A DNA stretch of 64,000 bases from contig JBGOSQ010000001.1 of the NCBI GenBank assembly GCA_041476045.1, positions 8,846-72,845 of the forward strand, read 5' to 3'. Position numbers and translations under genes: made by a program. This document shows positions 4,278 through 54,279 of the stretch, piece by piece (the stretch's first letter is position 1; each line of letters opens with the position of its first letter). The notes beneath the pieces are model-generated. The model was given only the letters and a program-made list of their open reading frames with translations, made no database searches and had not been told where the DNA came from. This stretch comes from Thermoplasmata archaeon (GTDB taxonomy: Archaea; Thermoplasmatota; Thermoplasmata; Lutacidiplasmatales; UBA184).

Positions 4278-4323
4278 CGATCACCTACGGGCAAAGCTTC
4301 TAACTACGGTCTCTCCTCCGACC

Positions 4324-16916: not shown

Positions 16917-16917
16917 C

Positions 16918-18282: not shown

Positions 18283-18323
18283 TGGGCGAACAAGGGGGGG
18301 CGCTCCCTAATAGAATTACTCCG

Positions 18324-34284: not shown

Positions 34285-34458
34285 CAGAATACAACGATTA
34301 CTTAATCATTGTGTAATTTCGTTAAACGATTCACCTTCCCGCGACCGCCGGGTCCGTGCCACTGTGTGGGGGGCGAGAGCAGTTATCCGGTTCCGGCGAA
34401 ATATTTCCCAGTTCTAAGTGCCCCGACCTTAAAGGGCAGAACGCCCGCAGGGGGGTCC
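34285..34458. promoter_or_regulatory. AT-rich divergent control region between the RHH gene and the Kelch surface-protein gene, with direct repeat AACGATT x2
   Basis: acagaatacAACGATTacttaatcattgtgtaatttcgttaAACGATTcacc is the only strongly AT-rich stretch in about 5 kb. Confidence 0.4.
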
Positions 34459-37400
34459 GTGGTCGCCTTCCTTCTGAACCTGGGAGCCTCTCGTCTTTCG
34501 CGCCGAACCCTTGGGATCGCCTTCGTGCTCGCAGTGGTCGGCGCGATGCTCATCGGGTCGATGCCGTCCGGGACCCATCTCGCCCCGTCGGGAACTCCTG
34601 CGATGCCGATCGGGTCGGACGCAGCGGCCAGTGCGCTCGCGGCTGCGAGGACATCGCTGAGTCTCGGGAAGGGTCCGACCTCGGCCGTTACTCCCTCCGC
34701 CACGGGCGGGGGACCGGGCCCGCAGCTGACCGCGGGCGCGTTGGGAACTCCGTGGAACCTATTGTACAATTACTCTCAGCCCTCGGCACGAGCGACCCCC
34801 GCGATGGCGTACGATCCTGCCGCGCACGCGGTCATCTATTTCGGCGGCGGCTGGAACCTCGGACAGTCGGGGAACGACACCTGGACGTTCGCGGGCGGAA
34901 ATTGGACGAACATCAGCGCGACCCTCTCCGTCGCGCCCGGACCGCGGGACGGCGCCGTCATGACATACGACGCAGCGGACCAATATATCGTGCTCTTCGG
35001 CGGCTTCACGAATTCGTTCGCCGGCGCGCCGAACACCTCCTGGGCCAACGGTTCCTACGCCCTCGCCGACACCTGGTCGTTCCAGTGGGGCTATTGGACG
35101 AACATCACCTCTCTTTCCCCTGCAGCGCCGCCCGCGCGCTTCATGGGGGCGATGACCTACGACTACACCGACGGCTACGCCGTCCTCTTCGGCGGTGACG
35201 CCCTCAACGGAACCCTGTTCAATGACACCTGGACGTTCTCCGGCGGCGTTTGGAACGACATCAGCGCGTCCGTGGGAACGGCACCGGCCGGACGTAGTTT
35301 TGCCGCGATGGCCGACGATCCATCGGACGGCTACGTCGTCCTGTTCGGCGGGTGGGACTCGATAAACTGGACGATCTTCAACGACACCTGGACCTTCTCC
35401 GCCGGATCGTGGACCCTGCTGCCGGCCGCTTCCGCTCCGCTGCAGCTGCGCGGCGCTGCGATGGCGTACGACGCCGCCCGGACCGAGCTGGTCCTGTTCG
35501 GTGGGGCCACCTACGGCTATTTCGGCCCCATCGTCCCGCAGGCGGAAACGTGGACCTTTGCCGCGGGCGCATGGACCGACATCTCCTCCACGATCGCGAG
35601 CGCCCCGCCCGCACGATTCTCCGCGGGCATCACGAACATCTCGTCCTCGGGTAGCCTCCTCATGGCCGATGGATGCCTCGCCGCAGGATGCTTCAGCTAC
35701 GTCGACATCTCCGACGGCTGGCTCTACAACGCCTCGGGACCGATCGGGCGCGCGTGGATCCCCGTAGGGGAATCCGACCAACCCTCCCAACGGGCCACGC
35801 CCGCGATGGCGTACGACGCGGTCGACCACTACGTGCTCTACTTCGGCGGCGGTTGGAACGTGGGCGAGTCCGTCGGCGACACCTGGACGTTCGCCAACGG
35901 TACGTGGACCAACATCACCGCGAACCTGACATCAGCGCCCAGTCCGCGCGAAAACGCGTTGATGACGTATGATGCCGGGGATGAGTACGTCCTCCTGTTC
36001 GGCGGTTACACCGATAACGGTCACGGCGGAATTGGTTCGTACACCCTTCACGACACGTGGAAGTTCACGGCGGGAGCCTGGACGAACATCACCGCCTTCT
36101 CTTCGACGGCGCCGCCGCCCCGGTTCATGGGAGCGATGACCTACGACTACACCGACGGCTACGCCCTCCTGTTCGGCGGCGACCAGCTGGGTTACAACGC
36201 GATGGCCGACACTTGGACGTTCAGCACGGGTAACTGGACCGACATCACCACAAGCTCCGGCCCGGCCCCGCCGCCGCGCAACTTCGCATCGCTGACGGAC
36301 GACCCGGCCGACGGGTACTTGCTACTGTTCGGCGGCTGGGACTCCGACACCCACACCGTCTACGGCGACACGTGGACCTTCTCGCACGGCGCCTGGACGC
36401 AGGTCACGACGCCCGTGGCACCGGTCCCGCTGCGCGGCGCCATGGTCGCCTATGAGGCGGTGGGAGGCTACGTCCTGCTCTACGGAGGCGTCACGTACTC
36501 CTCCCCCGGCTGGCCGTTCGGCCTCGAGAGCGAGACGTGGATGTTCTCCGGCGGTAACTGGACGAACCTGACGCCATACATCACGACCGAGCCGCCGGCG
36601 CGGTTCTCGGCGGGAATAACGAACATCTCCGACACCGGATCCATCGTCATGGCGGACGGTTGTCTCGGCCAAGGCTGCATTCCGTTCGAGGACCTCGCGA
36701 ACACCTGGATCTTCAACTGGACGAGCATCAACGGGACGCTGGGCCTCGCCGTTCATCCCACCCCCCTCGACCCGACGGCCTCCTTCGCCGTCACCGCGGT
36801 CGGGGGCAACTGGGCCTACCACTACGCGTACGACGGCCTCCCCGTCGGCTGCACTTCGATCGACTCCGCGTCCCTGACGTGCGTCCCCATCGGGGCCGGG
36901 ACCTATTCGGTCGGCGTGCTGGTCAGCGACACGGCGGGCCGGACCCTCGCGCTCTCGGTGAACCTGACCGTGCTGGGAGAGGAGCTCTCGATCGCGGCCG
37001 TCGCGTCGGTCCCCGAGCTCGATCTCGGTCAGCCGGTCGTCCTGACCGCTGCCGCGACCGGCGGCGCGGGCGCTCCGTGGACCTTTGGCTACCTGGCCCT
37101 GCCGCCCGGATGCACGAGCCAGAACTCGGCGTCGTTGTCGTGCACCCCGGCGCAGAGCGGAACGTTCCACGTCATCGTCACCGTGACCGATGCGTCCGGC
37201 CGAACGGCGACGACGGTGGTCGCGGTCCTGGTCCATCCCGCCGTGGTGGTTTCGGCGCTGGTCTCTGCGTCGACGATCGATCTGAGCGAATCGATCACGA
37301 TGTCGACCGCGGCCTCGTACGGTTCCGCGGTCTACCATTACGTGTGGTCGAACCTGCCGGCCGGCTGCTCGTTGCCAAGCGGTTCCACCGTGCAATGCAC

Positions 37401-38007
37401 CCCCACGACCGTGGGCACCTGGACGATCTCCGCCGGAGCGATCGACACGCTCGGACAGTCCGCGATGGTGGACCCGATCGGTCTCACCGTCAATCCGGTG
37501 CCGACCGTCCAGGGGTTGGCGACCGTCGGCGGGCCTTCGCAGCCTCTCTCCGTAGACCTCGTGGCCGATCTCGCGGGCGGCACGGCGCCGTTCGAGGTCG
37601 CGTGGGTCTTCGGCGATGGTCTGACGGGATCGGGCCTCTCGGTGAGCCACACGTACGGTGCGGGCGGCACGTACGCCCCGCAGGTCTTCGTCAACGACTC
37701 CCGCGGGTTCTCGGCCTCCTGGTCCGTCGAGGTCACCGTCCAGGCTCCCGCGATCGTCCACACCCCGCTCCCCCACATCGGGACGAGCGGAGGCGGCGGG
37801 GGGGCCTGGTACGACGCCATCGGCGGCGAGTTCGGTCTCGGCGTCGTGTTCGGGCTCCTCGCGCTGGCGATGGTGGGCATTTGGGCTGCGCGGCGACGCC
37901 GTGCGCTCGCCGACGCGACCCGGTTCGTCGAGGATCTTCGATCACCCGCGCCGACGATAGGTTCGTCCCACCGCAGCAACGACCCGGCAGACCGGGGGCA
38001 TCCGTAG
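34459..38007 (+). CDS. large surface protein: Tat-like signal peptide, about 12 Kelch/galactose-oxidase-type repeats, 4 PKD/Ig-like domains, C-terminal TM anchor
   Basis: SRRTLGIAFVLAVVGAML signal. Repeated YD...Y.VLFGG....NDTWTF..G.WTNI..APP.R units. Four roughly 95-aa YHY.W..LP.GC...S..C.P...GT..V...V.D..G repeats. GLGVVFGLLALAMVGIWAARRRR anchor. Confidence 0.75.
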   Translation: MVAFLLNLGASRLSRRTLGIAFVLAVVGAMLIGSMPSGTHLAPSGTPAMPIGSDAAASALAAARTSLSLGKGPTSAVTPSATGGGPGPQLTAGALGTPWNLLYNYSQPSARATPAMAYDPAAHAVIYFGGGWNLGQSGNDTWTFAGGNWTNISATLSVAPGPRDGAVMTYDAADQYIVLFGGFTNSFAGAPNTSWANGSYALADTWSFQWGYWTNITSLSPAAPPARFMGAMTYDYTDGYAVLFGGDALNGTLFNDTWTFSGGVWNDISASVGTAPAGRSFAAMADDPSDGYVVLFGGWDSINWTIFNDTWTFSAGSWTLLPAASAPLQLRGAAMAYDAARTELVLFGGATYGYFGPIVPQAETWTFAAGAWTDISSTIASAPPARFSAGITNISSSGSLLMADGCLAAGCFSYVDISDGWLYNASGPIGRAWIPVGESDQPSQRATPAMAYDAVDHYVLYFGGGWNVGESVGDTWTFANGTWTNITANLTSAPSPRENALMTYDAGDEYVLLFGGYTDNGHGGIGSYTLHDTWKFTAGAWTNITAFSSTAPPPRFMGAMTYDYTDGYALLFGGDQLGYNAMADTWTFSTGNWTDITTSSGPAPPPRNFASLTDDPADGYLLLFGGWDSDTHTVYGDTWTFSHGAWTQVTTPVAPVPLRGAMVAYEAVGGYVLLYGGVTYSSPGWPFGLESETWMFSGGNWTNLTPYITTEPPARFSAGITNISDTGSIVMADGCLGQGCIPFEDLANTWIFNWTSINGTLGLAVHPTPLDPTASFAVTAVGGNWAYHYAYDGLPVGCTSIDSASLTCVPIGAGTYSVGVLVSDTAGRTLALSVNLTVLGEELSIAAVASVPELDLGQPVVLTAAATGGAGAPWTFGYLALPPGCTSQNSASLSCTPAQSGTFHVIVTVTDASGRTATTVVAVLVHPAVVVSALVSASTIDLSESITMSTAASYGSAVYHYVWSNLPAGCSLPSGSTVQCTPTTVGTWTISAGAIDTLGQSAMVDPIGLTVNPVPTVQGLATVGGPSQPLSVDLVADLAGGTAPFEVAWVFGDGLTGSGLSVSHTYGAGGTYAPQVFVNDSRGFSASWSVEVTVQAPAIVHTPLPHIGTSGGGGGAWYDAIGGEFGLGVVFGLLALAMVGIWAARRRRALADATRFVEDLRSPAPTIGSSHRSNDPADRGHP

Positions 38008-39846: not shown

Positions 39847-42800
39847 CTATACGCCGGCCCGGAACTCGGCCGTGAGCCGATCGGAGGCCGACGGATCCAT
39901 CAGCGCCGGGTTCACTGGAAGGATGAGCCGCCCACCGCTCTCCGAGGCGAGCGCATCCAGCTCGTGGAGGAAGTCGATCGTTCGCGCGCTGCCATGGATG
40001 CGGACCAGGTACTCGACGCCCTCGATGTAGGCGGTGCGGCCCGGGCCGCCGCCGAGGAAGGTTCGGAACAGCGCCCGCAGCGTCTCCAGGTCCCCGGGGC
40101 GGACGGATCCTTCCCGTCCCACGTTCGAGAGCCATACGACGCGGACGTTGCGCGACCCCAAGGCCGCGCGCAGCCGCTCCGGGAATTCCCGACTGAGGCA
40201 GAGCCCGGCAACGCCGGCATCGGTGAGCTCGAGGAACGTAGCCCAGGGCCGGTCGGCGGTCGGCTCGGTCCAGACCTCGACGCCCGAGGGCGGGGGCGGC
40301 GGCGCGGCCGGCGCTTCGGGGGCTGGGACCGGGACCGGCGCAGCCGGCTCGGGGGGTGGCGATGGCGCCTCGGGCTCCGGTTCGGGTTCCGGAGGCGACG
40401 GGGGAGTCGGAAGCTCGATTCGGGGCGCGACCGCGAGGATCGGGTCCGGGATCGACGAGGGCAGGAGGGCCGAGGCGACCTCGATGGTGGCCACCGCAGC
40501 CACCGTGGGGAGGGAACGGGGGGGCGGTTCCGATGGGACGCGCTCGAGGATCAGCGGAGGAGCGGGTCGCGTCAGCTCCATGACGGCGACGGGGGGAGGC
40601 GGAGTAGCGGGAGAAATAGGAGGAACGGAGACCTCCGGTGGCTCACGCGGTCGCATCGGGCGGATCCGAGGGGGCGGCGTGCCTCCGAAGCCCTGCACGA
40701 TCGTCGCGGCGAGGACGGGCCCGAATCCCTCGACCTCGGCCAGCTGCTCGTAGGGGGCGTGGGCGACCGCGTCGAACGAGGTGAGCCCGCTCTCCCACGC
40801 CCGCGCGAGTTTCGCGGGCCCGATGAGCGGGCGGCCGAGCGCGTGGTCGAACGATTCCACCGCTTCGCGGATCGCGGCCTCGCGGGCGCGGAGCCCTTCG
40901 TCGAGAAAGTCGATCACGACGTCGTCGCCGATCGGGCGCCCCGTCGCCCGCCGTCGCGGTCGGCGGGGTCGGGGCGGCTTGCGCCGCGAGGAGACACCGA
41001 CGGGGACTCCCGGGATCCAGAGCGACCACCGCTCCCCCCGGCGCGTCCGACCGTGCGTGGTCTCCGCGGAGACGAACGAGGCGGCATCGGCGGCCACGAC
41101 GATCTCGACCCCTTGCAGGAACTGGCTGATGGCGGCCGCGTGGCGCGTCAGTTCCTCGCCGAGCGTGCCCGATGCGGAAAAGACGACGCGGTCGATCGCC
41201 GAGGGGGTCGCGGCGCGATTGAGGCGGCGGCGCAATAGGTGGAGGAGGCGGAAGCCGTCGGGAGTGAGCGCCGGTGGAGCCGCGTCGCCGCGCCCGGGCA
41301 TGTCCGACGGAAGCGTGACGAAGAGGTCCCCGTGCGCCCACGGGATCGGCACGACGCCCGTCGCCAGCGCCTCCGTGATCTCCACCATGCTCGGGGTGAT
41401 CGGGAGCGGATGGCCCTCGAGCACGAGCTCGAGGCTCCGGGCACGGATGCCGTCCTGGATCCGCGTCGGGCTCATTCCCTCGAGCATCCGAAGGATCCGC
41501 GGCGCCTGGAACGGGTAGGCGCGCTGGATCTCCTCGGGTACGGCGTGGATCCGGACCTGCTTGCCCTCCCAGGGCTGAGAGGGGGAAGCGACGTCGACGC
41601 GTTCGACCCCGGCGAGTCGCTGGAGGACGGCCCGGTGCGATCGGAGCTCGCCGGCCACGGTCTCATCGGTGACGGAGAGGACGATCGCGGGGAGGTGCGA
41701 ATCCGGCGCGAGACCGAGCTCGCTCCGGTACTCTCTCAGCGTGTCGACGACCGAGCGCCATCGCGCGTAGGAGAGTTCGAGCGGCGAATCGAGCAGCAGC
41801 TCCTGGCTCGGCGTGAGCGGTCGCTCGAAGATGCTCGTGCCGTCGCCGCGGAAGCCGCGATGGATCGCCTCCATCGTGAACGGGGCGATCGGCGCGTACA
41901 GTTCCGCCCACAACGGCAGGACGTGCCCGAGGACCCGGCACGCGGCCGCCTTGGGCAGGGGGAACCCGGGAAGATCGAGGCGCGAGCGGGAGAACGCGAG
42001 GTAGCCGGCGCGCAGCTCCTCCTCGAAGAACCGCACGAGTCGGTCCTGCGCCACGTCGACCGCGCCAGTCTCGTAGGCCCGGATGACGTCGATCCGCATC
42101 CGTTCGAAGAGCGACAGGAACGCGCGATCCTCTTCCGGGAGCTCGGCGACGTGGCCGCCGATCGAACGCGGGTCCGGTTCGTAGCCGTCGCGAAGGAACC
42201 GGTCGAGGATCTCGCGTGCGACCTGCCAGATCTTGCGGAGCCGCCGTTCCTCCTGATGACGGCGATCGCCGAGACCGGGGTCGTTGGCCCGCGGCGAAGT
42301 GGCGGTACGCAGGAGCGCGGCCCGCAGCGCGTCCGCCGGGGCGTCGAGCGAGGTCGTCTCGCCCTCGGCCTCGAAGGGAAGCGTCGGCATCGGGACGACG
42401 CGGACCTCGCCGGGGGCCGCGCCCGCGGCCGCGAGTGCGACGGCGTGGTGGACGAGCGCCGGAGCCCGACGTCGTTCGGGGACGTAGAGACGTACGGCAT
42501 CCGCGTCCGGGAACGGACGGTCCGTTGCCCAGATCGCGAGCGCCTCCTGCAGCGAGGGAAGGAGGCGGCGCGCCACCGTGCGCCAGTGCGCGCCGCAGGT
42601 GCATCGCTCCGGCGCGTCGGCGATTGGAGAGAGACGTCCGCAATGGACGCATTCCAACAGATGCGGCGCGTCGGCCGCCTCGGTCGTGCGCCACTCGCTC
42701 ACCGGCCACGCGACCGGGTCCTCGGTCTTCGGGAACGACTCTGCGGGGGCGAGGCGTGCCAGCCGGTCCCGGACCGCGGGCGGTGCGGTGCTCGCGTCGA

Positions 42801-43935
42801 GGCACCAGGCACGCGACGGTTGCCAGTAGAGCGCCGTGCCGCAGACGATGCAGTGGGGCACACCGCGGTGGACGCGCAGCTGCGCGAACAGGAGCCCGGA
42901 CTCGGTGAGGTCACGGAGGACGAACGCCTCGGCCACGTCGACGGGCAGGCCGGCGTACTTGTGCTGGAGGTCCCGGACGAGCTGACCCTCGGCATCGACG
43001 ACCGGCCAGCCCGGGATCCCGAGATGGAACGCCGCCGCGGCGTCGCCGGCACCGTGGGCAGGGACGAGGGCCACCGCGCCGGTGCCGGAGTCATCGACCT
43101 CGGTGGACGCGGCGATCTGCCCCGCCGGGACCGGAAGGCTCGCGAGCGTGGGGAACTCGGTCGCGAGCGGATGCTCGTAGCGGAGACCGACGAGCGTCTC
43201 TCCCTTCTGCTCCTCGAGGACCTCGATCTCGCATCCCTCGAGCCACGACTTGAGACGGCCGATGGCCGAGCTCAGGACGAGGAGCACCTCCTCCGTGCCG
43301 CGGCGTCGATAGCGGATCCGGGCGTACGTGAGGTCCGGGTGGACCAAGACCGCGCTCGTCCCCAGGAGCTTCCACGCGCTGTCGATCCAGACGAGAAGGC
43401 TCGTCCTCGGGGACTTGCCGTCCAGGAGGAAGCGCACGAGGTAGGCGTCGCCGTCCTCGGCCGAGTACACGATGCCCTCCGGGGAGCGGGGGGCGCGGCA
43501 CGCCGGGCACGACCGGAGCGGGAGCTCGCGGCTCGCGAGCAGGCCGTCGCGTGCGAGGTGGTCGACCATCTCCTGGATCTGCGGCGGGCTCGCGACCTCC
43601 GCGAGGGGCTCGAGCCGACCGTTGCCGACCCAAACCCCCGAGGCGGCCAACATCGGTCGGAGGACCTCGAGCGCCGGGTGATCGGTCCGACGTGCCAGGA
43701 GGCGGCCGCGGGTGGGATGTCCTTCCAATCCGAGGAAACGGGATTCGGCATCCGCCCGGACGGCGCGCTGGAGGAAGGAGATCGCCGAGTCGTAGGCCGC
43801 GAGCGCGGCCACCATCTGGTGGAGTCGCGGCCCCGTGCCGCGGCCTCCCGATGTCGGTAGCGACCTCGCCTTCCAGAACGCCGCCGATTCGGCCTGTACC
43901 TGGGCCGGTTCGTAACGGGCCGGAAGTGAACGCAT
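39847..43935 (-). CDS. isoleucyl/valyl-tRNA-synthetase-like pseudo-enzyme fused to HhH motif, Pro-rich linker and an unknown C-terminal alpha/beta domain (1362 aa)
   Basis: Class-Ia aaRS architecture retained: zinc knuckle CPACRAP; YLVRF...LLVWIDSAWKLLGTSAVLVHPDLTY where WTTTPWTLP sits; SGTGAVALVPAHG CP1; CIVCGTALYWQPSRAW. Catalytic HIGH, EGSDQHRGWF and KMSKS positions read PRLHQM, PERRRAPALV and GETTS. The C-terminus has GLTSFDAVAHAPYEQLAEVEGFGPVLAATIV (HhH) and PEPEPEAPSPPPEPAAPVPVPAPE. Confidence 0.6.
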   Translation of the reverse strand: MRSLPARYEPAQVQAESAAFWKARSLPTSGGRGTGPRLHQMVAALAAYDSAISFLQRAVRADAESRFLGLEGHPTRGRLLARRTDHPALEVLRPMLAASGVWVGNGRLEPLAEVASPPQIQEMVDHLARDGLLASRELPLRSCPACRAPRSPEGIVYSAEDGDAYLVRFLLDGKSPRTSLLVWIDSAWKLLGTSAVLVHPDLTYARIRYRRRGTEEVLLVLSSAIGRLKSWLEGCEIEVLEEQKGETLVGLRYEHPLATEFPTLASLPVPAGQIAASTEVDDSGTGAVALVPAHGAGDAAAAFHLGIPGWPVVDAEGQLVRDLQHKYAGLPVDVAEAFVLRDLTESGLLFAQLRVHRGVPHCIVCGTALYWQPSRAWCLDASTAPPAVRDRLARLAPAESFPKTEDPVAWPVSEWRTTEAADAPHLLECVHCGRLSPIADAPERCTCGAHWRTVARRLLPSLQEALAIWATDRPFPDADAVRLYVPERRRAPALVHHAVALAAAGAAPGEVRVVPMPTLPFEAEGETTSLDAPADALRAALLRTATSPRANDPGLGDRRHQEERRLRKIWQVAREILDRFLRDGYEPDPRSIGGHVAELPEEDRAFLSLFERMRIDVIRAYETGAVDVAQDRLVRFFEEELRAGYLAFSRSRLDLPGFPLPKAAACRVLGHVLPLWAELYAPIAPFTMEAIHRGFRGDGTSIFERPLTPSQELLLDSPLELSYARWRSVVDTLREYRSELGLAPDSHLPAIVLSVTDETVAGELRSHRAVLQRLAGVERVDVASPSQPWEGKQVRIHAVPEEIQRAYPFQAPRILRMLEGMSPTRIQDGIRARSLELVLEGHPLPITPSMVEITEALATGVVPIPWAHGDLFVTLPSDMPGRGDAAPPALTPDGFRLLHLLRRRLNRAATPSAIDRVVFSASGTLGEELTRHAAAISQFLQGVEIVVAADAASFVSAETTHGRTRRGERWSLWIPGVPVGVSSRRKPPRPRRPRRRATGRPIGDDVVIDFLDEGLRAREAAIREAVESFDHALGRPLIGPAKLARAWESGLTSFDAVAHAPYEQLAEVEGFGPVLAATIVQGFGGTPPPRIRPMRPREPPEVSVPPISPATPPPPVAVMELTRPAPPLILERVPSEPPPRSLPTVAAVATIEVASALLPSSIPDPILAVAPRIELPTPPSPPEPEPEPEAPSPPPEPAAPVPVPAPEAPAAPPPPPSGVEVWTEPTADRPWATFLELTDAGVAGLCLSREFPERLRAALGSRNVRVVWLSNVGREGSVRPGDLETLRALFRTFLGGGPGRTAYIEGVEYLVRIHGSARTIDFLHELDALASESGGRLILPVNPALMDPSASDRLTAEFRAGV

Positions 43936-44067
43936 CGAAGGCGCCGCCCGACCGAACGGGGACGACCGTCGGATTCATCCCCGACGGGATAAATCTTCCC
44001 TGCGCCCCGGCGGCGCCGGCGCCCGAGAGTCCGCCGATCCCCTTCCGGGGCCGCGACCCCGGCCGAC

Positions 44068-44823
44068 CTAGGCCGGTACGCCTCGACGACCGCGGTGGCG
44101 CAGTCGCTCGAGGTCCCACCAGAGACGGTCGATCTCCGCGATCGCCTCGGAGGGCGCGGTCTCGGTCGCGGGGGCGCGTCGGCGTCTCGGCTCGCTCTCG
44201 ACGGCTTCGTACGTTTCGGATGGCGGCATGGACTGTGAACGCTCCCGGTCCCCGTCGGTCTCGAGCCAAACGGGGGCGGCACGGAACGAACGAGGTAGGG
44301 GGGATCCGGGGGCCGGCGGCACCCTTGGCATCCGGACCGGCTGCCGAACGGGGACCGGGGTCGGGACCCGTCCGGGCTCGACGCCCCGCGAAGGTCTCGA
44401 CGGCGCCGCGTTCGAGGGCGCATCGTCCGGGAGCTCGTCGAGTACCAGGGAGAGGAAGGCCCCGACCGCAGCGATCACGCCGAGCGCGGCGAAGAGGATC
44501 CAGATCTCGATCGCACCGGCGGCGATCCGCGTCGGTGAGCTGCGGAGCGCGAGCGCGACGACCGCGCACGCGCCGGTGGCGATCAGGAGCGGCGCTGCGT
44601 CGTCCAGCCGCTCTCCGACGGTCCGCGGACCGGTCGGGACCGGTTCAAGCGGCCCGATCGGGCGTGGCGGGGTCCACTTCCGGGTCTTCGGCGTCGGCGG
44701 TGCCGTACCGGTCGCGATCGAGCGGGAGGTCGGCCGCAGACGTCGGTGGAGCTGCGGTCCCCGGGCCCCCCCGACCGAGGCGGAACTCGTTGAATCGGGC
44801 GGTCGAATCGATCTCACGGGCAT
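44068..44823 (-). CDS. Pro/Thr/Arg-rich membrane protein (2 TM) of unknown function
   Basis: ATG MPVRSIRPP just after the stop of the upstream gene; TM pair LLIATGACAVVALAL / IWILFAALGVIAAVGAFLSLVL; low-complexity flanks. Confidence 0.35.
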   Translation of the reverse strand: MPVRSIRPPDSTSSASVGGARGPQLHRRLRPTSRSIATGTAPPTPKTRKWTPPRPIGPLEPVPTGPRTVGERLDDAAPLLIATGACAVVALALRSSPTRIAAGAIEIWILFAALGVIAAVGAFLSLVLDELPDDAPSNAAPSRPSRGVEPGRVPTPVPVRQPVRMPRVPPAPGSPLPRSFRAAPVWLETDGDRERSQSMPPSETYEAVESEPRRRRAPATETAPSEAIAEIDRLWWDLERLRHRGRRGVPA

Positions 44824-45359
44824 CGCGCCGCCGTGCTGCATGCGGTGAGGGCGACTTCGACGGCGGTGACCGTGGGCGCGGTCGTCGTTCCCAGATCGAC
44901 CAGGAGGTTGAGGTGGATCGTGTGCCCGACCGCCGAGGTCGTCGTCCCCGAGGAGAAGTACCCGAACGCGACGAACCAGCCGGTGGTCGTTTGGACCGCC
45001 AGTTCCACCGCGAATCCGAAGGCCGTGCCCGTAGTACGCGGCGGCTGCGTCAGGGAAAGTTCGAGCCACTCGGCAAAGTGGTTGACGGTGAGGCGCGGCA
45101 TCCCCGCCCCGCGGTAGGAGTCGTTGCAGAGGACGAGAGTGCAGGAGGGGAGTATCCGCGTGGTGCCGGCGACCCCCGAGGCGCCGCCGGCCTGGGTCCC
45201 GGCTCGCGGATCGCCCGAGATCGCGCCGGTGACCTTGAGCAACCCGTGGGCGACGTTCACGACGGCAGGGAGGGTGTTGCCTCCGGTGCGGACGAGCACC
45301 TTGGAGGCGATGAACGGCGTCACGCTCGTCGCGGCGAGGACGGGAGCGGGCAGGAGCAA
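44814..45359 (-). CDS. small secreted protein, paralog of 45547..46176 (conserved C-terminal VDLGTxTAP...C....CP)
   Basis: Hydrophobic N-terminal signal-like segment; C-terminal 90 aa align with the neighbouring gene. TTG start reported, but the frame continues upstream as a longer h-region without a canonical start. Confidence 0.4.
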   Translation of the reverse strand: MLLPAPVLAATSVTPFIASKVLVRTGGNTLPAVVNVAHGLLKVTGAISGDPRAGTQAGGASGVAGTTRILPSCTLVLCNDSYRGAGMPRLTVNHFAEWLELSLTQPPRTTGTAFGFAVELAVQTTTGWFVAFGYFSSGTTTSAVGHTIHLNLLVDLGTTTAPTVTAVEVALTACSTAARCP

Positions 45360-45546: not shown

Positions 45547-46176
45547 TTACGGACAGGCCGCCGCGCTGGAGCACTGGTTGAACACGACGTTCACCGAGTT
45601 GATCACCGGCGCGGTGGCCGTACCGAGGTCGACGAACAGGAAGACCGTGATCGCCGATGTCGTGACGACGCCCGTCGTGCCCGTCGCGAGGTAGCCGATC
45701 GCGCTCACCGTGGAGGTTACGACGCCCACCGTGATCGAGATCTGGACCGCGAGATCGAACCCGACGCTGTTGCCAGCGGCGCCCGCCGGTTGCGTGACGG
45801 TCATGACGATCTGCTCGCCGAAGTTGCCCGTCGTCTCCGTCGCGGGGCTCGCGGTGATGAAGTTCGCGAGCGGGCAGGGCCCGGCCGCGCACGTCGAGAG
45901 GGCACGAGGAGTACCGTCGAGACCCGTCGCGCCGACGATCTGCGTTCCACCCGTGAGGGAACCGGTCATTCCCACCGTCAGGACCACGAGCTGCTCCGAC
46001 GTGATCGCCGCAACACCGGCGAAGCCGCCGGGCGAGGGGGTCTGGGTGACGTTCGTCGACTGCTGCGGGCTCAGGGTCGTCACGGTCGTCGCGGCCAAGG
46101 CGTAGCCGCCGATCATGGCGATCATTGCGGCCGTGGTGGCGAGATAGATCGTTCGTTGCCGACGTTTCGTTGTCAT
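45547..46176 (-). CDS. small secreted protein (Sec signal MTTKRRQRTIYLATTAAMIAMIGGYALA), Thr/Gly/Val-rich, C-terminal Cys pair
   Basis: ATG at 46176 preceded by a G-rich RBS; Sec-type signal; paralogous to 44814..45359. Confidence 0.5.
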   Translation of the reverse strand: MTTKRRQRTIYLATTAAMIAMIGGYALAATTVTTLSPQQSTNVTQTPSPGGFAGVAAITSEQLVVLTVGMTGSLTGGTQIVGATGLDGTPRALSTCAAGPCPLANFITASPATETTGNFGEQIVMTVTQPAGAAGNSVGFDLAVQISITVGVVTSTVSAIGYLATGTTGVVTTSAITVFLFVDLGTATAPVINSVNVVFNQCSSAAACP

Positions 46177-46381: not shown

Positions 46382-46768
46382 ATGGCGTGGACGCAGCAGG
46401 AGGTCCGCGAACTCAAGGAAGGCCGGTACATGCTCATCGAGGAGGAGCCGTGCCGGATCATCAGCATCCAGATGTCCAAACCGGGAAAGCACGGTGAGGC
46501 AAAGGCCCGGATCGATGCGGTGGGGCTGTTCGACGGCTCGAAGCGGAGCGTCGTCTTTCCGGTGAAGCACAAGGTCCAGGTACCGATGATCGGCAAGCGC
46601 ACCGCCCAGATCCTCTCCCTCACGGACGTCGAGGTCCAGCTGATGGACCTCGAAAACTACGAAACCTTCTCGCTCCCCATCGAGGCCGAACTGAAAGGCC
46701 AGCTCACGCCCGGCTCGGAGGTCCAGTACCTCGATGCGATGGGGAAGCGCCGCATCACGCGCGCCTGA
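46382..46768 (+). CDS. eif5a: translation initiation factor 5A
   Basis: Hypusine-loop region SKPGKHGEAK plus an OB domain; GAGGT RBS. Confidence 0.9.
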   Translation: MAWTQQEVRELKEGRYMLIEEEPCRIISIQMSKPGKHGEAKARIDAVGLFDGSKRSVVFPVKHKVQVPMIGKRTAQILSLTDVEVQLMDLENYETFSLPIEAELKGQLTPGSEVQYLDAMGKRRITRA

Positions 46769-47236: not shown

Positions 47237-50200
47237 ATGCCGTTCCCCGAAACGTTCGTCGAGACCCTCTCCCTCGCGGTCGAGCCTCCCGGGGACGGGG
47301 ACTGGGGGCCCGCGCTTACCGCCCTCGCCCAGATCCTGGAGATGCTCCGGACCGCCGAGGACGCCTTCGGCGAATCGATCCGGACGCGGGCCCAGGCGCT
47401 CGCCGCCTGGTCGGGTGAATCGGAGGACCGACTCCCGGCCCTCGAGGGTCGACTGCGTACGGCCCTCGAACCGCTACGCGAGGGGGACATCCCGAAGGCG
47501 CTGGGACAGGTCAATGACGCGATCACCCACGAGCTACCGAAGGTGGGAGCGCGCCGCGAGGTCGCCCGGGCCGACGGCACGGCCCTCCTCGGTGCCGCGC
47601 GGGACCTTGGGCTTCCGAACGACGTTCTCGATCGCGCGCTGCGTCTCGACTCGCAGGCAACCCCCATCGACTGGAAGGCGACCGTCGAGGCGGTCGAGTC
47701 GGCGAACAACCAGGTCGGCGAGGCGCTTCGCTCGCGCGTCGCCGCCACGTTGGATTCGCTCCGCGCGACGTTGGAGTCGCTCCGAGAATACGGCGTCGAC
47801 CCCACGGAAGCGCTCGCCCAGATCGGGGAGCTGATGGGAGCCGTTCCCACCGCGCCGCCGAACCAGGTGCCGCGACTGCTCGAGCAGGCGCGCGGGATCA
47901 CCGAAGAGCCCGTGGTCGGGATCGTGGCGAGCCTCATCGACACCGTCCGCCCGCGCCTGGTCGAAGCCCGGCGCTTGGGGCGTGACCCGAGCGAGGTGTT
48001 CGCAACGATGAACCGAGCGCGCGAGGCGCTCCGGCTCAAGATCTACTCCGAGGCGCTCGCCGCGAGCCAGGAAGCGCTCGACCGCGTGAGCAACCTCACC
48101 GCCGACCTGGACTCGGCCCGCGAGGAGGCGGAATCGTTGGGGGAGCTCCTCCGCCGTCTCGAGGGGGCGCGATTCCCGACCGACCGGTTCGCCCAGGCGC
48201 TCCAGAAGATCCGCGACCGTCTCGCGGCCGTCGAGCTCGAGGCGGCCCAGACGCTGCTGCGCGAGACCCTCCGCACGATGGGCCAGGAAGCGGCCCAGTT
48301 CTTTTCCGCCCGGCTCGCGATCGTCGAGTCCGTCCTGCCGTTCGCGCGCGAGCGCGGGTTCCTCCCTCCCGACCTCGAGGACGATCTCGCGACCGTCCGA
48401 CGCCACCTGGACGACGGTCGTATCGCCGACGCGGGCGAACTCCTGAGCGCGCTCGAGGTCCGCCTACGGACCACGGCCCTCCCGTACGTCACGCGACGGA
48501 TCGAGGAGCTCGAGAAGGGGTTCACCGAGATCCCCGACGAGTCGCTCATCACTCCCGTCCGCCGCCTGCTCGCCGACGCCGACGTGAACCTCCACGTGAA
48601 GGAGGACCTCCCCGCATCGGCGGAGAGCCTTCGGCGCGCGGAACGCGAGTTCACCTCGGTCTTCGCCGCCCATGCTTCCGCCATGGTCGAGCTCCTCGAG
48701 GAGGAGCGCCGGACCTTGGAAGCGATGGGCGGGGCGGGCGACGAGATCCAGCGCCAGATCGACGAGGTCCAACAGATCTTCAACATGGGGGATTTCGTCA
48801 AGGCCTCGCGGGCGTCGCAGGAGATCCGGACCCGCGCCCACCAGCAGCAGCTCCTCCGCGGCGAGGATGCCATATCGCACGCCAAGCTCGCTCTCGTCGA
48901 GCTCGGCAAGATGGGCGTCGAGGCGGGGCCGCTCCGCACGACGCTCGAGCAGGCGCTAGAGGCCGCGAAGGGGCAGCGATATTCGGACGCGTACCGGATC
49001 GCTGCGGAAACCCAGGACGCCGCCTTGCGGCTCAAGGCGAAGGCCCAGTCGATCCTCGACGGTCTCGCGGCGGCGAACGAGCTGTTCCAGGAGCTCAAGT
49101 CGGGGGGCGTGACCATCGATGTCCACCGCGACAAGATCCGGCTCGCCCAGGTCGCCTACCAGGCGCTCGATTTCGACGGGGCGAAGGACACGCTCGATGT
49201 CCTGATGGCGCTGATGCGCTCCGAGCTCGCCAACGCGGAAACGCGTCGCCTCATCGCCGAGGCCCGGCTCCTCCGCGAGGACGGCCAGCGCCTCTCGATC
49301 CCGACCGACGCGCTGGCCGCCCGGATTACCGAGGCGCAGAGCGCGCTCGACGACGGCCGTTCGTCCGAGGCGCTCCAGAGCGCGCGCCGCGTCGGAACCG
49401 AGCTCGTCGAGACGCTGCGCCCCGTCCTTGCGGAGAACCTGCGGACCCTCGAGCAGGACCTCGAGGTGGCCCAGTCGGCCGGCCTCGACATCGCGCCGGT
49501 CGTCGAGGTCCTCGGGGAGGCGCGGCGCCGTCTCGGCCTTCCGGTTCCGGTGGGCGTCGCCGAGCTCGTCGAGCGCGCGAGCGCCCAGCTCGTGGAGACC
49601 CGCGGCTTCCTCGAGCACGCCGACCGCGCCCTCAAGCGCGCGGCGGAGGCGTTGAACCAGGGCGAGCTCGTGCGCGCCTCGGTCCCGAACGGACGCGATC
49701 GCCTCGCGGCGGTCGAGACGACCCTCAAGCGGCGCGACTACGCGCGCGCGATCGAGCTCGCCGGCACGCTCGAGCGCGAGATGCTCCAGGTGACCTACCA
49801 GCAGGTGTCGAAGAACCTCGCCGGATTCCAGGGCGTCCTCGTTCGGGCGCGCCAGGCCGGCGGGGACACCGCGATCGCGGAGAACCTTTTGATGCAGGCG
49901 CGCCAGGCGCTCGAGGAGGGTCGTCCCCTCGAGGCGCTCCAGCTCGCCTCCCGTAGCGAGGCCGAACTAGAGCGCGTCGAGCTCCAGCTACGGATCGCCG
50001 AAGGTTCCCTCCGCACGATGCAGGGCAAGCTCGAGTCGGCGGAGAAGGAGGGACTGCAGGCCCGCGTCGCGCGGGAGAAGCTCGCCGAGGCCGAGCAGTC
50101 GTTCCGCGATCACCTCTACCCGATCGTCCTCGAGCTCGCGATCGACGCCTCCGACTCGCTCGCGGTCTCGCGCGAGGGGTTCCGGCGGGCGCGCGAGGCG

Positions 50201-51373
50201 CTCGATTCCGCGGACCGGCAGGTCAAGTCGGCGATGGAGCTCGGCGCAGACGTCGCCGAGGCGATGCCGGTGCTCGAGGCGGCGCGCTCGGCTCAGCAGA
50301 CCGGCGACTATCCCGACGCGACGCGCAAGGGTCGGGAGGTCGCGGAGATGGCGCGGTGGGCGATCGAGCGGCTCTACTCCGGCGCCCTCAGCGATCTGCG
50401 TCACCTGACGGAAACGGCGCGCGCCGCCGGCCTTCCCGACGACGCGGCCGATCCGAGCCGCGGGGTCGAGGAGGTCGAGACCGCGCTCCAGACGCGCGAT
50501 TGGAAGCGCGCGAACGAGCTGCTCCAGTCGGCGCGCGAGTCCACGACGGCCGCGATGACCGCGCGCCTGGACGGTCGGATCGCCGAGATCGAGTCGCTCT
50601 ACGCCGCGATGGGAGCCCCGCCGGAGCCCGAGATCCCGCTGCGGGAGGCGGCGCGGGCCCGGATCGCCGAGGCGCGCACCCGGGGGGCGTTCGCGGAAGC
50701 CCTCGGGGTCCTTCGGGACGAGGAGGCGCGCATCGCCGAGCATCAGCGCACCGACCTGCAGGCGCGGGTCACCGCGCTTCGCGAGCGCCTCTGGATCGGC
50801 GAAAAGCTGGGCGTCGACACGACACCCGTCATGGAGATCTTCAGCGAAGGTCAGCTCGCGCTCCAGTCGGGGAAGCTGGTCGAGGTCCCGGCATTCGTCG
50901 ATCGGGGCGAGGAGCTCCTCCGCTCGCTCGTCGCGACCCGGGTCCCGGAGCGCCTCCGCGAGACCCAGACGGAGCTCGTCTTCGCCCAAGAGGGGCTTCA
51001 CGTCGCGCTCGACGACGTCGCCGACCGTCTCAAGGCCGTCGGCGCGCTCCTCTCGAGCGGCTCCCCTATCGAGGCCGCCCAGCTCGTCCTGACCTCGACC
51101 GAGGAGCTCAACCGACGCAAGGCGCTCCACCGCGAGCTGATGAACCTCCACTATCTCATCGACGCCGCGCTGGGACGCGCGGCGGAGCGCCACGTCGACA
51201 CCGCGGCCGCCCGCCGGCTCCTCGACGAGTCGATCCACGTGCGCGTGACCGACTACGCCCTTGCGCTCGAAAAGGCGCGCGAAGCGCTCCGGCTCCTGCA
51301 GGGACAGCTGCAGGGGACGGAGAGCGTGACGCCCGCGAACTTCTGGCCGTTCCGCAAGGCGCCCGGGGCCTGA
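47237..51373 (+). CDS. giant all-alpha repetitive protein (at least 1378 aa; frame open back to 46838 with no canonical start)
   Basis: Low-complexity, Ala/Leu/Glu/Arg-rich helical repeats (...EALQ.AR....EL...LR...L..L..DLEVAQSAGLD..PVVEVL.EARRRL...). The same frame upstream of 47237 encodes TKILQEKAELLKRQRQTAEQSFHDAQLRAKLL..., a clear coiled coil, yet contains no ATG/GTG/TTG. Confidence 0.6.
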   Translation: MPFPETFVETLSLAVEPPGDGDWGPALTALAQILEMLRTAEDAFGESIRTRAQALAAWSGESEDRLPALEGRLRTALEPLREGDIPKALGQVNDAITHELPKVGARREVARADGTALLGAARDLGLPNDVLDRALRLDSQATPIDWKATVEAVESANNQVGEALRSRVAATLDSLRATLESLREYGVDPTEALAQIGELMGAVPTAPPNQVPRLLEQARGITEEPVVGIVASLIDTVRPRLVEARRLGRDPSEVFATMNRAREALRLKIYSEALAASQEALDRVSNLTADLDSAREEAESLGELLRRLEGARFPTDRFAQALQKIRDRLAAVELEAAQTLLRETLRTMGQEAAQFFSARLAIVESVLPFARERGFLPPDLEDDLATVRRHLDDGRIADAGELLSALEVRLRTTALPYVTRRIEELEKGFTEIPDESLITPVRRLLADADVNLHVKEDLPASAESLRRAEREFTSVFAAHASAMVELLEEERRTLEAMGGAGDEIQRQIDEVQQIFNMGDFVKASRASQEIRTRAHQQQLLRGEDAISHAKLALVELGKMGVEAGPLRTTLEQALEAAKGQRYSDAYRIAAETQDAALRLKAKAQSILDGLAAANELFQELKSGGVTIDVHRDKIRLAQVAYQALDFDGAKDTLDVLMALMRSELANAETRRLIAEARLLREDGQRLSIPTDALAARITEAQSALDDGRSSEALQSARRVGTELVETLRPVLAENLRTLEQDLEVAQSAGLDIAPVVEVLGEARRRLGLPVPVGVAELVERASAQLVETRGFLEHADRALKRAAEALNQGELVRASVPNGRDRLAAVETTLKRRDYARAIELAGTLEREMLQVTYQQVSKNLAGFQGVLVRARQAGGDTAIAENLLMQARQALEEGRPLEALQLASRSEAELERVELQLRIAEGSLRTMQGKLESAEKEGLQARVAREKLAEAEQSFRDHLYPIVLELAIDASDSLAVSREGFRRAREALDSADRQVKSAMELGADVAEAMPVLEAARSAQQTGDYPDATRKGREVAEMARWAIERLYSGALSDLRHLTETARAAGLPDDAADPSRGVEEVETALQTRDWKRANELLQSARESTTAAMTARLDGRIAEIESLYAAMGAPPEPEIPLREAARARIAEARTRGAFAEALGVLRDEEARIAEHQRTDLQARVTALRERLWIGEKLGVDTTPVMEIFSEGQLALQSGKLVEVPAFVDRGEELLRSLVATRVPERLRETQTELVFAQEGLHVALDDVADRLKAVGALLSSGSPIEAAQLVLTSTEELNRRKALHRELMNLHYLIDAALGRAAERHVDTAAARRLLDESIHVRVTDYALALEKAREALRLLQGQLQGTESVTPANFWPFRKAPGA

Positions 51374-53320: not shown

Positions 53321-53423
53321 GCTCCCGTAGTCTAGTGGTCAAGGATAGAGGCCTCTCGAGCCTCTGACGCGGGTTCAAATCAGCGTGGGAACCACCCCAC
53401 CTCTGAAACTCCCGCCGGGAGCA
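53321..53423 (+). tRNA. tRNA-Glu (anticodon CUC) with 30-nt intron in the T-loop (about 53381..53410)
   Basis: Acceptor GCTCCCG/CGGGAGC (7 bp), D-stem GTCT/GGAT, anticodon stem GAGGC/GCCTC with loop CTCTCGA (U33, CUC), T-stem GCGGG...CCCGC only after removing CAGCGTGGGAACCACCCCACCTCTGAAACT; discriminator A. The spliced length is 73 nt. Confidence 0.75.
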
Positions 53424-53451
53424 CCTCCCCGGACCGGGGCCGGTTGCAGAG

Positions 53452-54279
53452 ATGCCCGCGTACAGGCTGTTGATCGTGTCGGAGCCCGACCCCGTGGCAC
53501 CGCGCGTCGCCGAGCGTTGGGGGACCCCGCCGTCCACCGGTCACTTCGTGGAGGGAACCCCGATCCGTGCCCTCGGGCCGCACGTCGGGATGCTCCGACG
53601 ACCCGGACTTCACATTCATGACGATCACGTTGACCGGCTCCTCCCGGAACCCGCGCGTCCCGGCGGCCTCACGGTCGTGTTCCCATCCGTGCACCGGAGC
53701 GAGAGCGGTCGTCCCTGCTTCACCGCCCATCCGCTCGGGAACCCCGGGGGGGCGGCCGAAGCAGGCGGGCGACCCCGCCACCTGGTCCCGACCGCGCCGC
53801 GGGAGATGACCGCGACGCTGCGCGCGCTGGCCGAGGCCGGCGCGTCGATCGGTCTCGACGCGACGTTCGAGGCCACGCACCACGGCCCGATCCTCGAGGT
53901 TCCGGCGTACTTCGCCGAGATCGGTTTTGGGGATGCCGCAGGTCCCTCCGACGCGGCCCTCGACGTCCTGGCCCGGGTGCTCCTCGAAGTCGAGGAGGAC
54001 CCGCGGGACCGCGTCGCGGTCGGTGCCGGCGGCGGGCACTATGTGCCGCACTTCACCGATCTCGCCCTACGCCGGCACTGGGCGTTCGGGCACCTTCTCT
54101 CGCGGCATGCCCTCGAGGAAGGCGCGGACGGCCTCGTGACCGAGGCCCAACAGAAAACGGCCGGATCGCAAGGGGTTCTCTTCGCGCGAGCCGCCGACGC
54201 CGCGGACCCACGCTGGGCCCGTCCGGGTCCGCGGCTCCGCGATTCCGACGCCCCGCGGCGCGGACCGACGGCGCCCTAG
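53452..54279 (+). CDS. dtdA: D-aminoacyl-tRNA deacylase, archaeal type (DtdA)
   Basis: LLIVSEPDPV... N-terminus and GGGHY motif typical of archaeal DTD2-type deacylases. Confidence 0.65.
   Translation: MPAYRLLIVSEPDPVAPRVAERWGTPPSTGHFVEGTPIRALGPHVGMLRRPGLHIHDDHVDRLLPEPARPGGLTVVFPSVHRSESGRPCFTAHPLGNPGGAAEAGGRPRHLVPTAPREMTATLRALAEAGASIGLDATFEATHHGPILEVPAYFAEIGFGDAAGPSDAALDVLARVLLEVEEDPRDRVAVGAGGGHYVPHFTDLALRRHWAFGHLLSRHALEEGADGLVTEAQQKTAGSQGVLFARAADAADPRWARPGPRLRDSDAPRRGPTAP

Follow-up and report, generated by a model that had tools for sequence, protein, structure and literature searches.

The stretch of DNA analyzed here (the window) comprises 64,000 nucleotides from a Thermoplasmata archaeon (contig JBGOSQ010000001.1 of GenBank assembly GCA_041476045.1, positions 8,846 to 72,845 of the forward strand), and carries on its minus strand a gene for a 1362-residue protein derived from isoleucyl-tRNA synthetase (IleRS), which we call pseudo-IleRS. 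As judged from sequence matches and a structural model, the protein is composed of a complete type-2 IleRS fold, a basic linker, a helix-hairpin-helix domain of the (HhH)2 type, a Pro-rich tether and a DUF835 (iKaiC) domain, in that order. The gene, the element preceding it and the segments it encodes are the following, with confidence of the model given as predicted local distance difference test values (pLDDT):

39847..43935, minus strand: coding sequence of the pseudo-IleRS-HhH-iKaiC protein, 1362 aa plus stop with an ATG start, from the list of open reading frames (ORFs), the coding phase and homologues
43989..43994, minus strand: ATTTAT, resembling a TATA box and preceding the pseudo-IleRS ATG by about 55 nt, from the window sequence
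43561..43935, minus strand: residues 1-125, N-terminal half of the Rossmann fold, with HIGH lost and the WDxHGLPIE segment deleted
42796..43560, minus strand: residues 126-380, CP1 editing-like domain and Zn knuckle, matching 1ile, pLDDT about 90-98
42586..42795, minus strand: residues 381-450, CP2/second Zn-binding insert, with E428, C429, C432, C445 and C447
42301..42585, minus strand: residues 451-545, C-terminal half of the Rossmann fold, with EGxDQxRGWF replaced and the KMSKS loop shortened
41701..42300, minus strand: residues 546-745, helical anticodon-binding domain (Anticodon_1, PF08264, E 5.5e-14)
40996..41700, minus strand: residues 746-980, C-terminal tRNA-binding domain of type-2 (archaeal/eukaryote-like) IleRS, matching 8c9d and 8c8v
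40906..40995, minus strand: residues 981-1010, Arg/Lys/Pro-rich disordered basic linker RRKPPRPRRPRRRA, pLDDT <50 at 983-1008
40666..40905, minus strand: residues 1011-1090, five-helix (HhH)2-type domain, from hidden Markov model (HMM) matches, the family profile and the helices of the model
40291..40665, minus strand: residues 1091-1215, Pro-rich disordered tether, from the sequence
39850..40290, minus strand: residues 1216-1362, DUF835 domain (iKaiC), with a KaiC/RecA fold lacking the P-loop

Because the window is 70% G+C, spurious long ORFs are common in it, and two overlapping ORFs on the plus strand were rejected as antisense artefacts in view of their Arg-rich translations. The pseudo-IleRS ORF has a G+C content at third codon positions (GC3) of 0.87 in its minus-strand frame; in the frame plot a single codon phase bears the GC3 signal between about 39750 and 43700, apart from an expected dip in the Pro-rich stretch, and the start codon is taken as correct because homologues align from residue 1. 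The ORF can thus be considered real, and the frame plot and the homologues together led us to reject a frameshift, a chimera or an antisense artefact. The initial annotation had cautioned against two of these. A frameshift masking intact motifs is excluded by the 109 homologues found (clusters at 90% identity), none of which has HxGH within the first 150 aa or WDxHG, while a KMS string is present in one; an assembly chimera is excluded by the occurrence of the same architecture on more than 100 independent contigs. In orthologous loci, inspection of 40 of the 73 intergenic regions showed a RGGGTTTAT box at the same distance from the gene as the TATA-like box of the window.

These 109 clusters, all with the same architecture, were the outcome of the first protein search; they are 34-69% identical to the window protein and 1030-1790 aa long. 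The 17 clusters with a named source all come from Thermoplasmata metagenome-assembled genomes (MAGs), and NCBI names the proteins 'class I tRNA ligase family protein' or 'DUF835 domain-containing protein'. When each GTDB species was represented by a single genome, scanning identified carriers in at least 121 species-level genomes; the 80 listed of these 121 are all labelled Thermoplasmata or Thermoplasmatota, and carriers include Candidatus Lutacidiplasma silvani, Lutacidiplasmatales, UBA184 and UBA61. Lutacidiplasmatales is an order of soil and peat archaea, formerly TMEG, with about 69% G+C (PMC9287336), and the composition of the window is consistent with it. In 12 orthologue pairs, the ratio of nonsynonymous to synonymous substitutions (dN/dS, Nei-Gojobori) was 0.07-0.21 overall and remained below 0.35 in each domain, the dead Rossmann halves included, so that a decaying pseudogene is excluded and the gene is, by these substitution patterns, under purifying selection in every domain. 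The notion of a functionless relic in decay, or of a frameshifted or chimeric ileS artefact, has in its favor the loss of all catalytic signatures and the large deletions in the catalytic core. It is refuted by selection and by a full-length architecture maintained in at least 121 species, besides the single coding phase, the conserved promoter and a set of invariant family-specific residues, and we give it practically no credence.

In single-sequence searches, Pfam returned Anticodon_1 (PF08264) at residues 603-749 (E 5.5e-14) and no match to tRNA-synt_1 (PF00133) at E values up to 1; the ileS equivalog of NCBIfam, TIGR00392, matched residues 123-382, i.e. the CP1 region only, with E 1e-33 and a score of 116.5 bits, below its cut-off of 621.4; and a search of PDB sequences gave Thermus thermophilus IleRS (1ile) over residues 127-380 (E 5.8e-22). 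A family profile built from 52 sequences reached further, matching P. megaterium IleRS2 (E 2e-51) at positions 94-438, which cover CP1 and the Zn sites, and 528-863, which cover the anticodon-binding and C-terminal tRNA-binding domains; these two domains also align to residues 602-927 of 8c9d. Positions 439-527 of the profile were unmatched and its first 82 residues were merely colinear with IleRS2, residues 1-125 as a whole being colinear with IleRS at a score of about 0.

An AlphaFold2 model of residues 1-1100, computed with 46 family sequences, had a pLDDT of 88.8 and a predicted template modelling score (pTM) of 0.77, the beta strands of residues 1-125 reaching pLDDT 82-95. With this model, the top Foldseek match was the type-2 IleRS 8c9d (E 4.5e-48 over about 1100 columns), and 8c8v, which has a resolved C-terminal tRNA-binding domain, matched over its full length (E 1.3e-47); complexes of yeast IleRS with tRNA were also among the top matches. 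The model and these matches lead us to conclude that the IleRS fold is kept in its entirety as a scaffold, with neither Rossmann half missing. The CxxC pairs of the Zn knuckle (C143/C146 and C362/C365) are present, a second Cys cluster (C429/C432/C445/C447), invariant or nearly so, aligns with the ECxxC of IleRS2, and the domain of residues 746-980 terminates in a conserved hairpin, G962-R-T-R-x-G967-x-R-W970. Thus, the proposal of the initial annotation that this is a class Ia, IleRS-type scaffold devoid of aminoacylation signatures was borne out by family motif analysis, HMM searches and structure prediction, and the segments it had quoted (both CxxC pairs, WIDSAWKLLG, GTGAVALVPAHGAGD, CIVCGTALYWQPSRAW, PERRRAPALV and GETTS) are all found in the protein. 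Compared with canonical type-2 IleRS (8c8v/8c9d and yeast 8wnd) and with T. thermophilus 1ile, the fold is shared over about 1000 residues, while the window protein has lost the motifs, shows a remodelled editing pocket and has about 380 extra C-terminal residues.

The fate of each catalytic motif was established by alignment, in T. thermophilus IleRS numbering, and by alignments to canonical archaeal IleRSs. The equivalent of HIGH lies at about A51-F54 (AISF, positions 51-55 reading AISFL), corresponds to S/A-L-V-A in the family and has no His there in any of the 109 members. The motif is therefore lost, as initially annotated, although not at the position then given: PRLHQM, which had been taken for it, is about 12 residues too early and aligns with the beta strand that precedes HIGH (FVFYEG in IleRS2). 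WDxHGLPIE has been removed entirely by a deletion of about 40 residues that is specific to the pseudo-IleRS family. EGxDQxRGWF is replaced by PERRRAPALVHH in the window protein and by [PG]-E-R-R-R-x-P-A-L-V-H-H across the family, with R488, R489 and P492 nearly invariant, and the KMSKS loop (around 517-533) is short and variable, with pLDDT <50 at 524-527; the replacement of EGSDQHRGWF by PERRRAPALV and of KMSKS by GETTS had been noted in the initial annotation. With respect to canonical IleRS, the Rossmann halves carry deletions of about 40 and about 50 aa. The catalytic mechanism of class I synthetases is well established, which is the basis for reading the loss of these motifs as inactivity, and on that ground the formation of an aminoacyl-adenylate by the canonical site does not appear credible. 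As the defining motifs are missing and the scores fall below the HMM cut-offs, the window protein does not count, from its sequence, as a functional member of the IleRS enzyme family, from which it is derived in structure and by evolution.

In contrast to the catalytic core, the CP1 domain does not look like a remnant. At least 95% conservation was found at 22.7% of its positions, versus 5-13% in the other IleRS-derived domains, and in orthologue pairs the lowest dN values corresponded to CP1 and DUF835. The equivalent of WTTTPWT is W183-x-D185-A/S-x-W188-K/R189; D185, W188, H294 and D298 are invariant (109/109), and only K or R occurs at position 189. The GTG segment (G284-T285-G286) is retained and the motif P292-x-H294-G-x-x-D298 is invariant, D298 being aligned with the universal editing Asp (D328 in T. 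thermophilus), the residue that binds the amino group of the substrate in class Ia editing sites. On the other hand, T. thermophilus T228/T229/T230/T233 correspond to V/T/I, D, A/S and K/R in the family, and the editing His (H319) to P, A or T. The initial annotation described the Thr cluster of the editing site as gone and editing as unlikely; the Thr cluster is indeed replaced, but CP1 is no decayed remnant, being the most conserved part of the protein, with the Asp and GTG kept. The sequence thus indicates a pocket that is remodelled rather than eroded, and the presence of an invariant acid/base pair where the aminoacyl ester is normally held suggests a new ligand, possibly a free amino acid, an amine or a phosphate.

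Such conservation could also be explained if pseudo-IleRS were a trans-acting editing or deacylase factor, in which CP1 would hydrolyze mis-acylated or unwanted aminoacyl-tRNA and the IleRS body would select tRNA(Ile). The strength of CP1 conservation, the invariance of GTG and of the universal editing Asp D298, and the retention of the tRNA-binding domains all agree with this, and so does the proximity of a gene for a DTD2-type deacylase, located about 6 kb from pseudo-IleRS in 3 of 5 loci inspected and present in the window as well, beside its only tRNA gene:

53407..54279, plus strand: DTD2-type D-aminoacyl-tRNA deacylase (PF04414), beside tRNA-Glu
53322..53393, plus strand: tRNA-Glu (CTC), the only tRNA gene in the window

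However, the Thr-rich peptide and the His are known from IleRS biochemistry to matter for post-transfer editing, and here the former is replaced and the latter is P, A or T; a loss of editing is plausible. A role in trans-editing would moreover leave the tethered iKaiC domain unexplained, and we consider it doubtful.

The basic linker is followed by the HhH domain. The single-sequence match to HHH_5 (PF14520) at residues 1032-1083 scores 20.7 bits, below the Pfam cut-off of 27 (HHH_5/HHH_2 E about 6e-4), so the motif indicated in the initial annotation is sub-threshold by that measure; the family profile and the helices of the model point to it. Many family members have a precomputed PF14520 match, and G1039, K1042, G1050 and G1070 are invariant in a domain that is modelled as five helices. 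The family profile matches the N-terminal region of haloarchaeal eL32 (PRK12766 in NCBIfam) with E 2e-9, the single-sequence match there having only E 0.16, and it also matches PolX, domain 5 of Hel308 and, weakly, the N-terminal domain of Rad51.

The Pro-rich linker, initially put at about 60 aa, is actually about 125 aa long (1091-1215). In the family, tether lengths range from 68 to 542 aa around a median of 359 aa; Pro makes up 26% of the tether, and runs of PPP or longer occur in 90 of 100 members. The tether is the sole part of pseudo-IleRS that evolves freely. PPP runs normally require IF5A/EF-P for efficient translation; the presence of such a tether in a gene that adjoins that of aIF5A (see below) may be a coincidence or a built-in dependence.

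The DUF835 domain gives a clear match to PF05763 at residues 1234-1358 (65.1 bits, with a gathering cut-off of 33.1). Its fold is of the KaiC/RecA type, with the KaiC-like protein PH0284 and FlaH/ArlH as best matches in the fold search, and Walker A was found in none of 100 members. The resemblance of the C-terminal domain to DUF835, offered tentatively in the initial annotation, is therefore borne out by a score above the gathering threshold and a KaiC fold without P-loop, and the window protein genuinely belongs to the DUF835/iKaiC-domain proteins. No match of the window protein to the KaiC-family ATPase model PF06745 was obtained with Pfam, the DUF835 profile gave nothing significant against PDB sequences, and when DUF835 by itself was used as query to look for other input domains, all that came back were short proteins consisting of DUF835, most of them fragments located on short contigs. 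DUF835 has been described as the iKaiC output domain of archaeal response regulators of the REC-DUF835 type (Galperin et al., 2018; PMC5847659). These share with the window protein the Pfam family, the P-loop-less KaiC-like fold and the C-terminal position of a presumed output or interaction module, and differ in the input, which is a REC or PAS domain in the regulators and a dead IleRS in the window protein. One paper mentioning DUF835 was found in the searchable literature.

The order of these two domains recalls RadA/Rad51, where an N-terminal HhH is followed by the RecA core, and the HhH and KaiC-like parts might therefore act on DNA, with the IleRS body as a moonlighting scaffold. Besides the order, the matches of the HhH profile to PolX, Hel308 domain 5 and, weakly, the Rad51 N-terminal domain agree with this idea. 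Against it are the absence of Walker A from all 100 members, the best fold matches to PH0284 and FlaH/ArlH with no recombinases among them, the presence of the same module on IleRSs that look active, and the neighbouring genes, which are translation genes; we deem an action on DNA highly improbable.

The IleRSs just mentioned came to light as a second tier of matches in the HMMER search, which was exhaustive over 1.84 billion representatives. These proteins are 22-28% identical and 1300-2300 aa long, and contain tRNA-synt_1 (1e-84 to 1e-128), Anticodon_1, DUF5915, HHH_5 and DUF835, sometimes with TPR or Zn ribbons. According to the motif alignment, four of them (tier 2a: P0243, P0244, P0249, P0267) look active, retaining HxGT, FDMHGLP, WTTTPWT, GxVHxAPGHGxxD, EAHDQTRGWF and xMSKS; HxGT is also found in the canonical archaeal IleRSs of the comparison set. 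Others are partly (tier 2b: P0248, P0250, P0251, P0253, P0258, P0260) or heavily degenerate (tier 2c: P0255, P0256, P0262, P0265, P0266, P0269, P0293), and a D-x-W-K signature in CP1 is common to some of the latter. A profile of the active-looking and partly degenerate fusions gave 8000 matches; the best 120 of these all contain PF00133 and PF05763, are called 'isoleucine--tRNA ligase' by NCBI/JGI and come from Thermoplasmata, Methanomassiliicoccales or Methanobacteriota. One fusion lies on a 2.5-Mb record, CP070726.1. Annotated IleRSs of Thermoplasmata and Methanomassiliicoccales with HhH and DUF835 (e.g. P0415 and P0419) reach lengths of up to 2900 aa, and some carry added TPR or Zn-ribbon inserts; their catalytic motifs look intact. 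The fusions of loci L088 and L089 belong to this group.

On sequence grounds, the IleRS-HhH-DUF835 fusion is evidently the ancestral form, and the window protein appears as the degenerate end of a graded series of Thermoplasmata IleRS fusions. In many Thermoplasmata the protein annotated as IleRS has this IleRS-HhH-iKaiC form, and the window protein is its catalytically dead derivative. In a crude neighbour-joining tree, all degenerate forms were grouped together as sister to the active fusions. The domain order of the window protein is thus shared with fusions such as P0244, P0415 and P0419, and the architecture, for which the initial annotation knew of no described pseudo-IleRS, is not unique; what is distinctive is the catalytic degeneration, as the active-looking fusions keep the aminoacylation motifs and the PF00133 match (1e-84 to 1e-128) and the window protein has neither. 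A further difference is that the window protein is encoded beside aIF5A and the fusions inspected are not.

With regard to a housekeeping IleRS, none other than pseudo-IleRS is encoded in the 64-kb window. P0263, from a Thermoplasmata MAG with 71.3% G+C (L092/L093, 6001..9372), is a canonical unfused IleRS with the motifs HIGT, YDMHGLP, WTTTPWT, EGLDQTRGWF and AMSKS, and a protein of this kind is a plausible housekeeping partner of pseudo-IleRS. Where the fusions have HhH-DUF835, P0263 terminates in a polycationic tail of 45 aa that is rich in Lys and Ala (AKKAAKKATRK...KKRRR). A tblastx comparison intended to link P0263 to a pseudo-IleRS genome showed no shared flanks, and the supplements of the Lutacidiplasmatales paper contain no ileS entry. 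The best match outside the family, P0110, was rejected as an archaeal IleRS because of its bacterial, Planctomycete-like context.

The most consistent feature of the genomic surroundings is the gene for aIF5A, which is divergent from pseudo-IleRS and upstream of it in all 80 loci with enough DNA, with a median gap of 142 bp and with a TATA box for each of the two genes. The genes downstream of pseudo-IleRS vary between loci. The corresponding region of the window contains the following:

46382..46768, plus strand: aIF5A gene (IF5A-like_N and eIF-5a in Pfam), with the hypusination motif SKPGKHGEAK
44068..44823, 44814..45359 and 45547..46176, minus strand: small ORFs of 251, 181 and 209 aa, without family matches, their GC3 being of the coding type
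46838/47237..51373, plus strand: large protein (about 1380-1510 aa), all-alpha or coiled-coil in appearance, beyond aIF5A as seen from pseudo-IleRS

The three small ORFs are found between aIF5A and pseudo-IleRS only in the clade of the window (about 5-6 loci), where their insertion widens the gap to 2.2-2.4 kb. An alpha-helical protein of about 1450 aa occupies the same position beyond aIF5A in 73 of 87 loci, and aIF5A, pseudo-IleRS and this protein make up a conserved three-gene block; neither the large neighbour in the window (47237..51373) nor the three small ORFs had a match in Pfam, NCBIfam or PDB. Outside Lutacidiplasmatales, linkage to aIF5A was seen at one locus, that of P0307, a protein of another Thermoplasmatota lineage about 20% identical to the window protein, with aIF5A and an agmatinase gene 3.6 kb upstream. 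Here (L099, 269..1963 and 4046..5283), a 564-aa DUF835 protein, aIF5A and an agmatinase-family protein are encoded within 8 kb upstream of the gene for this heavily degenerate IleRS-HhH-DUF835 protein. As the active-looking and partly degenerate fusions inspected in other Thermoplasmata are not beside aIF5A, the link could be a matter of inherited synteny.

This arrangement raises the possibility that aIF5A, which is an L-shaped tRNA mimic, is the ligand instead of tRNA or besides it, its (deoxy)hypusine loop entering the acidic CP1 pocket so that pseudo-IleRS would chaperone, sense or regulate the factor. In addition to the divergent pairing in 80/80 loci with a gap of about 142 bp, the aIF5A and agmatinase genes 3.6 kb from a very distant, degenerate member, the hypusination motif of the aIF5A in the window and the suitability of the invariant acidic residues D185 and D298 for a polyamine-like side chain are in line with it. 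There is also a precedent, as PoxA/EpmA is a LysRS paralogue that modifies EF-P; the likeness consists in a synthetase paralogue genetically linked to a tRNA-mimicking factor of the EF-P/IF5A family. PoxA/EpmA is, however, a class II protein with an active adenylate site and without anticodon-binding domains, while the window protein is of class I and has all tRNA-binding domains. Chemistry of the PoxA type would be impossible for pseudo-IleRS because it has no adenylate-forming site; both anticodon-side domains are kept, which agrees better with a tRNA of full size than with aIF5A, a smaller molecule; adjacency of genes is by itself no proof of a physical interaction; and other members of the fusion family lack this adjacency. 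We therefore see aIF5A as an improbable ligand.

Taking these results together, the explanation we favor, with a probability of about 0.45, is that pseudo-IleRS acts as a non-catalytic sensor or adaptor that binds tRNA(Ile) or an L-shaped ligand and signals through its iKaiC domain. The protein would be unable to make Ile-AMP or to charge tRNA, and its IleRS body, basic linker and HhH domain would bind the L-shaped ligand, for which tRNA(Ile) is the most likely candidate; the tip of this ligand, such as the 3' end of tRNA, would probably be presented to the remodelled CP1 pocket. Occupancy of this pocket would be the input, whether by charged versus uncharged tRNA or by an amino acid or amine, and iKaiC, on its long and flexible Pro-rich tether, would be the output, through docking onto KaiC-family ATPases or oligomerization with them. 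The strict divergent pairing with aIF5A is the reason for placing this function in translation control. The two ends assigned to sensing and output, CP1 and DUF835, are by sequence comparison the slowest-evolving parts of the protein. Because active-looking fusions carry the same HhH-iKaiC module, its function seems to be older than the loss of catalysis, which suggests that it depends on the body of IleRS and not on its chemistry, a pattern consistent with subfunctionalization after duplication.

Several observations weigh against a sensor of this kind. Binding of tRNA is deduced from the kept fold and domains of the model, and the HhH domain might just as well indicate DNA. The grouping of the degenerate forms in the tree may be due to long-branch attraction. 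A metagenome scan for P0263 gave 5 loci, all on other contigs, and did not tie it to a genome bearing pseudo-IleRS. No aIF5A gene is present within 8 kb of two active-looking fusions and one partly degenerate fusion. Finally, no KaiC-type gene is adjacent to pseudo-IleRS, the nearest in the window being 22-27 kb away:

16137..16988 and 17503..18306, minus strand: KaiC-family genes, with PF06745 E values of 2e-55 (strong) and 5e-16 (weak, possibly degenerate), respectively

These two genes, which flank a 195-aa ORF and adjoin a PAC2 gene, are candidates for partners of iKaiC domains.

A more far-reaching version would be that an ancestral, bifunctional IleRS of Thermoplasmata was split into a plain catalytic IleRS and a non-catalytic sensor reporting to a KaiC-type network. 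In Lutacidiplasmatales and related lineages, the sensor would read the charging or modification of tRNA(Ile), or the status of aIF5A, through the re-purposed editing pocket. Such a split seems to us rather unlikely; if true, it would provide an archaeal counterpart of GCN2 or of the logic of the stringent response. We know of no equivalent of GCN2 or RelA in archaea.

Pseudoenzymes derived from synthetases are known, such as the HisRS-like domain of GCN2, HisZ and PoxA. The HisRS-like domain of GCN2 is catalytically dead, binds uncharged tRNA and is fused to a protein kinase, and the proposed sensor resembles it in joining a dead synthetase-derived domain to a signalling module, although this is an analogy only; GCN2 is a eukaryotic protein whose domains are a class II HisRS-like domain and a kinase, with no sequence relationship to the window protein. 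IleRS has been ranked among the most evolutionarily stable synthetases in a large survey (PMC5388404). Neither an IleRS-KaiC-like fusion nor a dead IleRS paralogue was found described in the searchable literature, which did not cover the 2017 KaiC-hub paper, and the same search gave no description of the HhH and DUF835 extension on annotated Thermoplasmata IleRSs. With respect to the initial annotation, the wide occurrence of the fusion architecture in annotated Thermoplasmata IleRSs and the divergent pairing with aIF5A are new.

If the sensor proposal is correct, many Thermoplasmata, including Methanomassiliicoccales, would physically couple IleRS to a KaiC-type module, which has been proposed as a signalling hub in archaea, and an abundant order of soil archaea would keep a version for which binding or sensing is the sole possible role. 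The latter would amount to a separation-of-function allele provided by nature, with which the role of the HhH-iKaiC module could be worked out, and the pairing with aIF5A would offer a testable entry to translational stress signalling in archaea.

As for the remainder of the window, no structured RNA or tRNA gene adjoins pseudo-IleRS. The genes for ArgRS, FtsY, fibrillarin/Nop5, L1/L10, aIF2alpha and DTD2 identify it as core archaeal information-processing DNA. The region to the other side of pseudo-IleRS includes a further large gene:

34309..38007, plus strand: Kelch beta-propeller and PKD-domain protein of 1232 aa, probably secreted or cell-surface

Beyond the window, P0284, a high-GC-type protein of 1182 aa, shows a CP1-like match at residues 840-1094, near its C-terminus, instead of the usual position around 170-420, and may represent a different architecture with an IleRS editing-like domain.

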